Shown in pieces: positions 48 to 5,369 of a DNA stretch of 25,803 nucleotides. The notes under the pieces are model-generated. The model did no database searches and was not told the origin of the DNA. It worked only from the letters and a program-made list of their open reading frames with translations. Made by a program: the position numbers and the translations under genes. Numbering within the stretch: the first letter of the stretch is position 1; each line of letters opens with the position of its first letter. This DNA comes from a virus (Duplodnaviria; Caudoviricetes), in IMG/VR virus record IMGVR_UViG_3300032237_001287, positions 1-25,803 of that record. The stretch is one strand, 5' to 3'.

Positions 48-63
48 GTGCGGTTGGGACGGG

Positions 64-78
64 TAGTGGCGTTGACTA
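64..78. repeat. palindromic TAGT-N7-ACTA site overlapping the stop of the 46-aa ORF
   Basis: Minus strand TAGTCAACGCCACTA has perfect 4-bp inverted arms around a 7-bp spacer. The TAG is the ORF stop codon. Confidence 0.65.
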
Positions 79-216
79 CGGGAACTGGCGGCGGTAATCT
101 TCAAGCCATTCCTCGCCCATCAATTCTACCAGTTTTTCGTGGGTGAGGTTGTCAATCCATTCAAGACAGGCTTTAAAGCGCTGCTTGTTTTCCTCCGGTG
201 TAATTTCTTCAGGCAT
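76..216 (-). CDS. small hypothetical protein (46 aa), not in the ORF track
   Basis: Hand translation: MPEEITPEENKQRFKACLEWIDNLTHEKLVELMGEEWLEDYRRQFP*. The ATG lies 14 nt after the fibre stop and the composition looks helical. No clear SD. Confidence 0.6.
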   Translation of the reverse strand: MPEEITPEENKQRFKACLEWIDNLTHEKLVELMGEEWLEDYRRQFP

Positions 217-218
217 GG

Positions 219-233
219 AAGTGAGTAGGACTA
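219..233. repeat. TAGT-N7-ACT(T) site overlapping the tail-fibre stop codon
   Basis: Minus strand TAGTCCTACTCACTT. It shares GTAGTC-N5-CACT with the site at 64-78. Confidence 0.6.
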
Positions 234-3101
234 CTTGCCTTCCAGCGCAGTGATTTTGGCTTCAAGAGTTTCAATGCGCTCCATTGCTTCCTGCAAAGCC
301 TTGACGGCCTTCATGTAGAGGACGGATAGATTGATGCCTTTGGTAACTTCGCCTGTTTCTTTACCGTTTTCATCGCGGTCAAGAATTTCAAAAACAAGGT
401 TGGGGCTAACTTGCTCAAGTTCCTGAGCAATCGGACTAATTTGACGGTGAGTTTCGTATCCAGTCTCCTCTTTGAAGTTCCAGTTGCGAATGCGAAACGC
501 TTTTACATCTTTCCACTGTGAACTTGCATCAACAATATTTTCTTTTAACTTTTGATCGGAAATACTGGTATAGCTACCATTCGTATTGGTGACGTTGCCA
601 TTTGTTGTCACTTGAAATGAAACAGTACCATTTAATGGAGCAGTAGCTGAATACGCGCCTCTAAATAAATAGTTTGCACTGCCAGCAGCGCTGGAGCTGC
701 TGGCAATAAAAACATCAGGGTTTGTGCTATAAACGCCGCTTTTGCCATCATTATTTATCTGCATTTTTGTCGTAGGACTAGCCGACCCGGATGGCGTAGT
801 GGAGAACACTAGGCGCGAGGGCATGGAGCCACTAGCTGGCGTCCCATCAGTTGTTGCGCGAATTGTTGCACCAGTCCTAAAGTTAGTGCCATCATTGCCG
901 GTGAAATTTATGATGCCAAGGTCAGTAGTCCCTACTAAAGCATTGGTGCCTGTTGTATTTGTTTGTGAAATACCAAAATTCAAGGTAGGTGGATAGCCAG
1001 AAAGCGAATAATTTAATATTGAGATTCCGTTACTGTAGGTATTTGTAGTGGTTTGAACTTGATAGAATGGTGTAGTGTTGTCTGCGGCTAGGTAGAAATT
1101 ACTACACGCAGTAGACGTGCCAACTAAGAGCCTGCGACTCGTATCAATTCTTGCCGCTTCAGTTGCGCCAATCCCAAACGAGATAACTCCATCTCCAGAG
1201 TTCCTCATCTGAATCTGAAGATTCTGGCCGGAGTTGCCAATGTAGCTACCGTTGGATGCTCCGTACGTTCCCCCGCTGTCAGGAATAATAAAGTAATTGC
1301 CTTGCTGCAGTAGAACGTTACCGCCACTTACATGGAGTTTTTCGCTAGGCCCAATAGTGCCAATCCCTAATCGGCCCGAAGAATCAAATCTCGCAACTTC
1401 GCTATAAGGATTAGCGCCAACACCAAAAAGAATACCAGCTTGTCCCGCTAGTCCTAGATATGTACTTGAAGTTCCGCTTGCATCAAGAACCGCAGATTGT
1501 GTTTTGAACAAACCATAATTTCCCCACGCAGTAGAAGTTAACGTAATTCCAGCGCCTTGCGTAGAATTGGACACAAGACTAAAATAAGTTGCAGCACTTC
1601 CCCCAGCGTTTGAATTTATAACTTGTGCTGTTGGCTGGCTGTCATTGTTATTTTTGGCAACAGTCAACAAATAGCCGGGGCTAGTAGTTCCTATGCCTAG
1701 TCCAGTTGGCGTAAGGCGCATCCTCTCCGTGGGAGTTGATGCAGTGCTGTAGGAAGAAACCGCGAAAGCAAGTGCTCCTCCGTTATTTCCCGCTGCATTT
1801 GGGTTTAGCCCCTGAATTGCAGCTGCTGCTTCATTCCCGCCATAGGTATTGGCCAACCAAAAATCAATTTGGGCAATGTTGGAAGCACTTGCGGCTGAAC
1901 CATTCCGAAGGCTTAAGATATTTGCAGTAGTAGAAGAGCCAAACACGCCATTCAGATGTAATAACGTCTGCGGGCTAGTAGTCCCCAAGCCTAATCGCCC
2001 ACTGGAATCCAACGTCATCGCCGGAGTGAAGCTGATGGTATTGCCTGCGGTGCCGGAGGGGGCGTTGTACCAAACGTGCGCACCGGCAATTTGATTATAG
2101 TAAGAAGCTGCGGCAGTAGATTTGTATTTATATGTTGTGTTGTAGTAAGCATTTCCAATTATTCCAACTTGATTGGTAAATCCAAAAACACCACCATAAG
2201 AGGAAATATCTAAGCCGACAAGTCCACTCCAAACACTCGGCGTAACCCCAATCCCAACGTTGCCGCTGCTGTCCAGGCGCATTTTTTCATTATTATTGGT
2301 GCCAAGTATTAAGTCTCCATTAGATTTGTTAAAAAAATAAGTGGTTGTATTTATTTGCCCCCAAAACGAAGAGCCTGTTGTGCCAACAGAATCATCTAAG
2401 ACAATGGTTGGGAGACTAGTGCTAATTGCAAGACCGGTAGAACTTGAAGAAAGGCTGGCTTGAAGAATTGCGGTTGGGTTACTTGTAGCAACACCAAGAT
2501 TCCCGCTCGCATCCACATACAACCGCCCAGCCCCACTAGTACTGATGGCTAGTTGGTCTGTGCCTGGAGAGTAGATTCCAGGTGCATAAGTAGTTCCGGT
2601 ACCAACAGCAACCGCAGGTGCCGTAGCCGAACCAGTTGACACTACGGAAAGATTACCGTTTGAATCAATTGTGGATCGAAGAATTCCTGCAGTAGCAAAA
2701 CCTAACGTAGAAATACCAGCTAAGTAAAGTCCTGTTGTTTTTGTTGTATTAAACGTAATGCTAGGTGTTGCGGCTGTACCGTCTGGGTAACTGACGCCAA
2801 CATTGACATAATCTGCGCCAGCAAGAACAACACCCCAGAAAGCCTCTCCAGTTTTAGGCGCGGAACTAAAAACAATGTTGGTACCGGAAAATTTAAAACC
2901 TTCTGCACCCGTTGGATCAGGTTTCTGCGGTACACCGCCAACAGAGATCAGAACGTTCTGCTCATTAAGGGGGAAGGGTACAGGAGCAACTCCGTTAACT
3001 TTAAGGGCAAATGATGTCGTTGTACCATTAAAACTTGCGCTTAAGCTATCGATCAAAAGATAAGATGAATAAGCAGCTTGCAGAGTATTCCCCAGGTACA
3101 T
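231..3101 (-). CDS. long modular tail fibre / receptor-binding protein with C-terminal intramolecular chaperone (peptidase S74-like)
   Basis: 956 aa, G/S/T/A-rich, with repeated (R/T)xDSSG(N/R)(L/V)G(I/L)G junction motifs. The C-terminus has SDQKLKENI (Ser codon at 558-560; S-D-x-x-L-K autocleavage signature) and a coiled coil (KALQEAMERIETLEAKITALEGK). Confidence 0.9.
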   Translation of the reverse strand: MYLGNTLQAAYSSYLLIDSLSASFNGTTTSFALKVNGVAPVPFPLNEQNVLISVGGVPQKPDPTGAEGFKFSGTNIVFSSAPKTGEAFWGVVLAGADYVNVGVSYPDGTAATPSITFNTTKTTGLYLAGISTLGFATAGILRSTIDSNGNLSVVSTGSATAPAVAVGTGTTYAPGIYSPGTDQLAISTSGAGRLYVDASGNLGVATSNPTAILQASLSSSSTGLAISTSLPTIVLDDSVGTTGSSFWGQINTTTYFFNKSNGDLILGTNNNEKMRLDSSGNVGIGVTPSVWSGLVGLDISSYGGVFGFTNQVGIIGNAYYNTTYKYKSTAAASYYNQIAGAHVWYNAPSGTAGNTISFTPAMTLDSSGRLGLGTTSPQTLLHLNGVFGSSTTANILSLRNGSAASASNIAQIDFWLANTYGGNEAAAAIQGLNPNAAGNNGGALAFAVSSYSTASTPTERMRLTPTGLGIGTTSPGYLLTVAKNNNDSQPTAQVINSNAGGSAATYFSLVSNSTQGAGITLTSTAWGNYGLFKTQSAVLDASGTSSTYLGLAGQAGILFGVGANPYSEVARFDSSGRLGIGTIGPSEKLHVSGGNVLLQQGNYFIIPDSGGTYGASNGSYIGNSGQNLQIQMRNSGDGVISFGIGATEAARIDTSRRLLVGTSTACSNFYLAADNTTPFYQVQTTTNTYSNGISILNYSLSGYPPTLNFGISQTNTTGTNALVGTTDLGIINFTGNDGTNFRTGATIRATTDGTPASGSMPSRLVFSTTPSGSASPTTKMQINNDGKSGVYSTNPDVFIASSSSAAGSANYLFRGAYSATAPLNGTVSFQVTTNGNVTNTNGSYTSISDQKLKENIVDASSQWKDVKAFRIRNWNFKEETGYETHRQISPIAQELEQVSPNLVFEILDRDENGKETGEVTKGINLSVLYMKAVKALQEAMERIETLEAKITALEGK
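797..2722. repeat. dispersed in-phase TAG-N9-CTA palindromic sites inside the fibre gene
   Basis: Exact matches at 797-811, 1112-1126, 1355-1369, 1685-1699, 1979-1993, 2537-2551 and 2708-2722. The spacings 315, 243, 330, 294, 558 and 171 are all multiples of 3. Confidence 0.7.
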
Positions 3102-4964: not shown

Positions 4965-5369
4965 TCAGCCTAGAGCAACGATGAGGGCGAGGTTGTCAGA
5001 GGAAGTAAACGTCCCCCCAATTGAAACATTACCTGTAATAGCAACATTTCCGGGGATGGTGATAGCACCAGATGAATCTATTGTAAGCCCTGCCACACCA
5101 TTGGTTACCAGTGCAACGGAACCTAACACGGGACTATAGATGCCGGTGCTGGCACTATTAGCAAATTTAATAGCACAGCTGGACAGCGAACCGGGCGATA
5201 GACTGATGTTTGTGCAATCTTCACGCAAAAGCGGATAGCCACCCGCCTTGACGCCATTGTTGACGACAACCGTATTCTTCGTGATATCTACAACAACTTC
5301 ACCAACAGCTCCAGTGAAGCCGCTGATATCGGTCGTCGTGCCTCTACGAAATTGTACTTGTGTTGACAT
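4965..5369 (-). CDS. short tail-fibre protein with Mtd/hyaluronidase-type N-terminal domain
   Basis: Starts QVQFRRGTT...FTGAVGEVVVDITKNTVVVNNGVKAGGYPL and ends LALIVALG. Confidence 0.7.
   Translation of the reverse strand: MSTQVQFRRGTTTDISGFTGAVGEVVVDITKNTVVVNNGVKAGGYPLLREDCTNISLSPGSLSSCAIKFANSASTGIYSPVLGSVALVTNGVAGLTIDSSGAITIPGNVAITGNVSIGGTFTSSDNLALIVALG

Follow-up and report, generated by a model that had tools for sequence, protein, structure and literature searches.

How are the receptor-binding parts of phage tail fibres exchanged between unrelated phages so precisely that the reading frame is preserved? Such exchange is usually ascribed to homologous or illegitimate recombination. The question is raised here by the virus record IMGVR_UViG_3300032237_001287 (Caudoviricetes) in IMG/VR, analysed over its whole length of 25,803 nucleotides and referred to below as the window. 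The window is an entire viral contig (25.8 kb, 30% complete), whose terminase shares 62% identity with its counterpart in cyanophage S-EIV1. At one end lies the gene under study:

231..3101, minus strand: tail-fibre gene, 956 amino acids (aa), with a modular body and a C-terminal Peptidase_S74 chaperone (aa 848-903).

An earlier note on this DNA had pointed out seven in-phase palindromic TAG-N9-CTA 15-mers in the gene and proposed that they are sites of recombinase-driven module shuffling. The feature is real and is most likely a site-specific module-exchange system of cyanophages. In our reading, to which we give a probability of roughly two in three, the motifs belong to 31-bp sites at which a tyrosine recombinase of the Cre/Xer type performs crossovers, most likely the enzyme linked to the fibre gene in related phages, with modules being swapped between phages in a spacer-matched manner.

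All seven 15-mers were found where the earlier note had placed them, in one codon phase of the fibre open reading frame (ORF 231-3101, minus strand), and an eighth TAG-N9-CTA is present in the window at 64-78. Seven motifs in the gene compare with a mean of 1.37 after synonymous shuffling, and none of 20,000 shuffles reached seven. After family-wise correction for the choice of the best among 1,024 palindromic 3-N-3 motifs, 259 of 5,000 shuffles do as well (~0.05), and the enrichment in this single gene is therefore borderline. We consider the reality of the motif to be settled by homologues, not by the single gene. The same 15-mers were found again in 27 related loci amid divergent flanks, and an estimated ~790, ~900 and ~650 IMG/VR stretches (stretches, not genomes) carry the 15-mers of the sites with the central bases GTTCTCC, GATTGGC and TGGCACG, respectively. 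The DNA-level constraint suggested by the earlier note is also evident in homologues: among 95 distinct GIGT-type contexts, selected by peptide, Val is encoded by GTA in 58 of 66 cases and Thr by ACT in 78 of 81, while the flanking codons vary, the preceding Arg being encoded by the four CGN codons at similar frequencies. The GTA and ACT codons are not needed for the protein itself, since S-CBP1 encodes seven such peptides with no site and none of 12 such peptides in four large isolates carries one.

Six of the seven motifs, together with two sites overlooked by the earlier note (219-233, whose core begins at the fibre stop codon, and 64-78 after it), are the cores of a 31-bp site, in which 12-bp mirror-image arms with the consensus AGGCCTAGTAGT surround a 7-bp slot-specific spacer. 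The sites in the window are listed below, with ranks among ~25,800 window positions under an arm matrix built from non-coding sites only:

2529..2559, minus strand: site in frame (LAISTS), spacer CATCAGT, score 17.2, rank 3 (core start 2537)
1971..2001, minus strand: site in frame (LGLGTT), spacer CTTGGGG, score 18.0, rank 2 (core start 1979)
1677..1707, minus strand: site in frame (LGIGTT), spacer CATAGGA, score 14.0, rank 6 (core start 1685)
1347..1377, minus strand: site in frame (LGIGTI), spacer GATTGGC, score 15.2, rank 5 (core start 1355)
1104..1134, minus strand: site in frame (LVGTST), spacer TGGCACG, score 15.7, rank 4 (core start 1112)
789..819, minus strand: site in frame (LVFSTT) with weaker arms, spacer GTTCTCC, score 8.7, rank 10 (core start 797)
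211..241, minus strand: site with core 219-233, fibre stop codon in the left arm, spacer CCTACTC, best score of the window (21.2, rank 1; a member of the matrix training set)
56..86, minus strand: site with core 64-78, at the cassette stop codon, spacer CAACGCC, rank 7 (also a member of the training set)

The seventh motif (2708..2722, minus strand) is probably incidental, as it is without outer arms, ranks 304 and occurs in just 2 of the 10 lineage members that were aligned. The one-mismatch copies at 2417, 923 and 2690 exist as the earlier note described them, and were rejected as sites with matrix ranks of 35, 350 and 403.

The arms were defined from copies outside reading frames, which are found at the stop codon of the fibre gene and where the small genes behind it end. 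Five 7-base spacers were used to gather these copies, and of the 124 contexts obtained, the 104 in which a left inner arm could be recognised were retained; without this arm filter, the left flank and the reverse-complemented right flank still give the same 12-position profile. A matrix was trained on positions -12..-5, the outer part of the arm, in 48 dereplicated left halves; when it was applied to 61 reverse-complemented right halves, these scored 0.94 against a null of -5.16±0.54 (0 of 20,000), with a signal at the mirror offset only, and the result was replicated on 57 new right halves from later scans (0.2 against a null of -5.13±0.55). Start- or stop-codon context was rejected as the source of the arms, the signal being stronger in 37 halves without a nearby ATG and absent at 512 ordinary gene starts. 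The fibre C-terminus was rejected as well, the signal persisting without fibre C-termini. In a scan of spacer lengths within 4-11, over loci seeded on 15-mers, length 7 gave 445 distinct high-scoring sites with 56 spacers, compared with 3-22 sites for the other lengths. Moreover, the outer arms of the coding classes exceed synonymous resampling in 9 of 12 class-arm tests. The mirror profile, the matrix tests and the spacer length of 7 therefore define the site unit as 12-7-12, and the arm matrix and the spacer-length scan replace the 3-9-3 site of the earlier note. With its 12-7-12 architecture, the unit is laid out like simple tyrosine-recombinase sites, for instance loxP and dif. The arms and central region of dif are described in the sections of PMC11705084 covered here.

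Sequence partners change at these sites. The expectation that mosaic breakpoints would fall at the sites was borne out in part: of 196 sharp breakpoints in 66 dereplicated regions, strict sites account for 26, where 3.4 would be expected, and sites with at most one mismatch for 63, against an expectation of 12.9, although conserved islands attract alignment ends to some degree, so that part of this enrichment is built in. The edges of the spacer (+4, +10) are where breakpoints accumulate. In the region downstream of the fibre, the switch of partners between relatives is confined to 2-22 bp around the spacer. Two-parent intervals there number 18; the 11 that overlap a spacer are all among the 14 of at most 22 bp, and one interval consists of exactly the seven spacer bases. 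The window itself matches locus L001 up to the end of site 64-78 and locus L004 from its start, giving a 16-bp crossover interval, and contigs from four runs of one study diverge or end at 60-64. Loci L014 and L015 are distinguished by an entire second fibre gene, which lies between two CCTACTC sites, with a 12-bp interval. The evidence is weaker inside the fibre, where all 14 GATTGGC pairs change partners between about -5 and +20 relative to the core start; these pairs are not independent, and their 15-mer was fixed by the search.

The CCTACTC spacer connects 19 left with 33 right flanks. Its right arm is identical in 9 of 13 pairs with a common right flank, compared with 16 of 148 with only the left flank common, and the right arm of CACCTTC is identical in 58 of 58 right-flank pairs (55 from one flank, the recombinase start) compared with 0 of 5 left-only pairs. 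By these comparisons, the right arm is seen to travel with the right flank. Flanks thus occur in many combinations around an invariant spacer, which suggests exchange between replicons. The sites are uniformly direct, with 717 scored sites forward and none reverse in 231 loci. Inversion was rejected on this count, and no minus-strand or inverted fibre pieces were found in these loci. Circles or split junctions joining two sites, which the earlier note had proposed to look for, were sought in the contigs (no raw reads) of the four runs holding the window; the joints seen there are other phages sharing two sites, not excision circles. In one locus (L012:5021-8830), two CATCTCG sites stand in direct orientation, with a start-less spare fibre C-terminal half after the second; one crossover between them would replace the expressed tip.

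Sites also occur away from the fibre. One recombinase-bearing genome has a second array at a distance of 35 kb from the fibre, in which each of three small genes terminates in a perfect core whose spacer is new. The sites also close small accessory genes remote from the fibre in G006:C1:26381-27484 (L108) and G007:C1:23400-23620 (L109), and spacer CCGATCA closes different genes in the two genomes. A second fibre region of a recombinase-less relative (L112:780-1092, G001) has three strong sites around a 76-aa ORF, and contigs of runs X1 and X3 connect the 64-78 site of the window to the start of a similar ORF.

The search for a tyrosine recombinase, suggested by the earlier note, revealed none on the window contig and a linked one in homologues. 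In locus L009 and in isolate S-LBS1, a gene with a PF00589 domain (51.2 bits, cut-off 27.1) directly follows the fibre gene. The recombinase is present in 76 viral loci, and the fibre is directly upstream in 33 of the 34 loci with at least 3 kb of upstream sequence and in 50 of the 54 with at least 1 kb. Site density is 0.7-1.9 per kb up to the recombinase gene and ~0.1 per kb beyond it. These loci form 11 backbone clusters, of which two are singletons (upstream genes not called) and two are both S-EIV1-like, and the carriers include two complete S-EIV1-like genomes whose terminase is 63% identical to that of the window contig. Residues R141, K175, Y234-x-x-R237 and Y269, which we take to be catalytic from general tyrosine-recombinase motifs, are invariant in 55 recombinase sequences, the H/W position reads GN, and the median ratio of nonsynonymous to synonymous substitution rates (dN/dS) is 0.048. 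Judged from its sequence, the recombinase is intact. The protein has ~284 aa, and its structural model (predicted local distance difference test, pLDDT, 76) matches Tn1549 Int fragment 82-397 best, as well as lambda Int 75-356 and XerA, in the core-binding and catalytic fold only. The PF00589 domain, the catalytic set and this fold place it among the tyrosine recombinases, while the model contains no arm-binding domain, the N-terminal hallmark of lambda-type lysogeny integrases. A single-sequence search against PDB gave no match. A total of 1,378 homologues were found at E<=1e-20; among cyanobacterial genomes (genome contigs, close relatives only), no close copy was found, the 3 matches being contigs of metagenome-assembled genomes (MAGs) labelled other phyla. 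A transfer RNA (tRNA) gene lies near the recombinase in 1 of 32 loci and a T-arm motif near 1 of 74 genes, a search that covers tRNA-type attP only. In locus L030 (4888-4961), a complete tRNA-Arg(ACG) gene forms a cassette exactly between CCTACTC and CACCTTC sites, before the recombinase.

A divergent recombinase (L099, 61%) faces an unrelated tail protein, with three non-coding sites scoring 13-15 within 190 bp; wrong spacer lengths yield 2 such high-scoring matches per 325 kb. In L515 and L516, a site directly follows the recombinase. A second, unrelated tail-protein family (phrog_19943/24898; L099:5910-7715, L527, L529, L530) has candidate same-phase sites at shared peptide positions, and its loci share downstream spacers. 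The numbers of in-frame sites in this family are suggestive, with 3 in L526 (shuffle maximum 3) and 4 in L527 (shuffle maximum 2).

The linked tyrosine recombinase, the location at module boundaries and the slot-specific spacers expected by the earlier note were thus all found in homologues. The homologues support the interpretation of the 31-bp units as crossover sites, which we hold to be very probable, and we infer the activity of a recombinase on them; that the fibre-linked enzyme is the actor is probable. In the proposed mechanism, one recombinase monomer would bind each arm and strands would be exchanged across the 7-bp spacer. Since strand exchange would span the spacer, only like slots would recombine, and module order and reading frame would therefore be kept. 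One crossover would yield a hybrid or cointegrate, and two crossovers, or one plus homologous recombination, would replace a module. Fibre modules and small downstream genes would be exchanged in this way between co-infecting genomes with the same spacer, and host range would change as modules move. Exchange thus appears to be spacer-matched, in place of the integron-like, homology-independent exchange that the earlier note had considered. A wider proposal, for which we see the prospects as evenly balanced, is that the sites form a shared, community-wide exchange standard, in which one phage recombinase, carried by a minority and acting in trans, and a 7-bp spacer code serve unrelated picocyanobacterial phage lineages. 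The spacer code, in frame in fibre genes and at gene ends, would assign each module or accessory gene to a slot, and receptor-binding parts would move between otherwise non-homologous phages without frameshifts.

A number of observations weigh against this reading. The recombinase is missing not only from the 30%-complete window contig but also from all five of the closest relatives, among them a complete one, and in the four runs containing the window the L009 recombinase gene is not covered at >=80% identity, although this does not prove that it is absent. Of 82 site-bearing loci (5 pairs of which are the same contigs), only 16 have the gene after the fibre, and site numbers do not differ with its presence (5.4 with it, 4.7 without; p=0.16). 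The marine and estuarine isolates S-CBP3, S-CBP4, S-CBP42, WH11-B and S-H1 have sites and no close recombinase copy, and, conversely, no site adjoins the recombinase of L517, L518 and L525. The absence of the gene from many site-bearing phages means that the model needs action in trans or modules inherited from carriers; phages without the gene, possibly including that of the window, would be served in trans during co-infection or would have inherited their modules. The arms are quite degenerate for a simple recombinase site, which accounts for the absence of a perfect TAGT-N7-ACTA from 5 recombinase-bearing genomes, and in 3 of the 12 class-arm tests the outer arms are no better than synonymous resampling. 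Finally, 133 of the 196 sharp breakpoints lie elsewhere than at sites. In TGGCACG and GTTCTCC pairs, partners change at the site but also in neighbouring conserved boxes (the mapping of the LVFSTT pairs, with spacer GTTCTCC, being low-powered and mixed), and in-fibre triplet intervals are mostly 48-71 bp wide, so homologous recombination contributes as well.

Four other explanations were considered. The sites may be true 12-7-12 recombinase sites used by another enzyme, a tyrosine recombinase of the host or of another phage, with the linked gene being cargo or a lysogeny integrase. The abundance of sites without a recombinase in cis, their presence in isolates lacking it, and the usual position of the gene directly behind a site, like cargo, speak for this, as do the lysogeny role proposed for the S-LBS1 gene in the covered sections of PMC6157547 and the supply of the enzyme by the host in Acinetobacter, as given in those of PMC11705084. 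The gene nevertheless stays tied to site arrays across unrelated backbones and beside a second tail-protein family, is without an arm-binding domain and only rarely near a tRNA gene, and has no close copy in the cyanobacterial genomes searched; integration of S-LBS1 was not seen according to the same part of PMC6157547. We consider another enzyme unlikely. Ordinary homology-driven recombination in short conserved boxes, as in T-even fibres and PeSLs, with the palindrome as an inherited accident, would explain the breakpoints elsewhere, the wide in-fibre intervals and the switches in other boxes, and part of the enrichment at conserved islands is inherent to alignment ends. It leaves unexplained the 12-bp mirror arms across non-homologous coding and non-coding classes, the fixed 7-bp spacing, the crossovers confined to 7-16 bp and the recurrence of the site, with new spacers, in an array of small genes far away, and is in our view decidedly improbable as the whole account.

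The dyads could also be binding sites of a dimeric regulator or packaging protein, at which crossovers gather via short identity. Dyad symmetry alone indicates only dimer binding, and many non-coding copies lie at gene ends, some of them just before promoters; an operator, however, needs no slot-invariant spacer with arms varying by their own flank, and the breakpoints cluster at the spacer edges, making this a long shot. Least credible, to the point that we give it almost no weight, is that the motif arises from codon bias together with the repetition of the GxxGIGT peptide. In its favour, these peptides are repeats homologous to one another, and the family-wise p of the single gene is only ~0.05, but synonymous shuffles and the site-free peptides of S-CBP1 and the four large isolates speak against it, and non-coding copies in another frame contradict it.

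Compared with known systems, the arrangement combines familiar elements. In integrons, an array of small gene cassettes bounded by sites ends in a recombinase gene, and the attC sites recombine as single-stranded hairpins. Some of the cyanophage arrays likewise end in a recombinase gene, whereas the cyanophage sites are 31-bp double-arm dyads whose exchange appears to need a matching spacer, and no IntI model of NCBIfam matched at E<=0.001. The system works most like the pdif/xrs modules of Acinetobacter (XerCD), in which, according to the sections of PMC11705084 covered here, several sites on a mobile replicon bound variable modules, sites with a common central region recombine between replicons (cointegration, resolution), and the enzyme may act in trans. 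The cyanophage sites likewise bound modules, which they would exchange by way of a shared central region. The cyanophage system differs in its replicons, which are phages, in having most sites in frame inside one gene, in the 7-bp spacer (XerC and XerD act on 6-bp central regions), in its symmetric arms, in its uniformly direct sites, and in its candidate enzyme, a single phage-encoded protein scoring 23 bits for XerD and 20 bits for XerC (cut-offs 330 and 335).

In the Rin shufflon of Bifidobacterium prophages, a tyrosine recombinase without an arm-binding domain lies beside a receptor-binding gene and is proposed to vary it, inverting stored tips in one genome via one repeated asymmetric 11-bp site (PMC6109161, in the part considered). 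The layout is similar, with a recombinase adjoining the receptor-binding gene (in 33 of 34 loci, not on the window contig), whereas the inverted sites and stored opposite-strand segments of shufflon-, Rin- or Gin-type invertases were not found in the cyanophages, whose spacers are slot-specific. In T-even gp38 and PeSL shuffling, variable adhesin segments or small genes are set apart by conserved elements, which also mark where exchange takes place (PMC3157838, PMC2839356, in part). Those parts describe protein motifs or repeats that resemble one another and name no dedicated recombinase, whereas the cyanophage spacers differ while the mirror arms are kept, with intervals down to 7 bp; shared homologous boxes alone fit some in-fibre switches but not the 7-16-bp intervals or the mirror arms. 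The 'integrase' gene A12 of S-LBS1 belongs to the family of the linked recombinase (82.6% identity) and directly follows a site-bearing fibre. The covered sections of PMC6157547 assign it to lysogeny with other putative att motifs, report no integration, and do not mention the 31-bp sites. No description of these sites was found in the literature searched, a search outside which most subscription papers lie.

If the reading is correct, a dedicated recombinase and an in-frame, slot-coded site would offer a concrete, testable mechanism in hundreds of cyanophage contigs, by which unrelated viruses could trade host-recognition parts. The S-LBS1 'integrase', cited as evidence of lysogeny in freshwater Synechococcus phages, would be reassigned. 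The system might, in addition, be a source of a compact recombinase whose many natural spacers are mutually exclusive. The cultured phage S-LBS1 has both enzyme and sites and is therefore straightforward to test.

Other features were noted around these arrays. A DUF7936 gene (L001:6137-6457; after the recombinase in many loci) closes the array with or without the recombinase and may be the right-hand anchor of the region. In L044:830-2560, several small 'MTD...PPPEL' ORFs in a row, whose ends are repeated, form one block between sites and are not individually site-bounded. The remaining features of the window near the fibre are:

76..216, minus strand: cassette with a 46-aa ORF (no PHROG match), flanked by two sites, found in L001 and replaced by a short stub in L004
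19..47, minus strand: sigma-70-like promoter (11/12 matches, 17-bp spacing), directly after the last site and within the right-hand partner segment

Upstream of the tail fibre, at 4965-5369 of the window, lies a gene with an Mtd_N (major tropism determinant N-terminal) domain.

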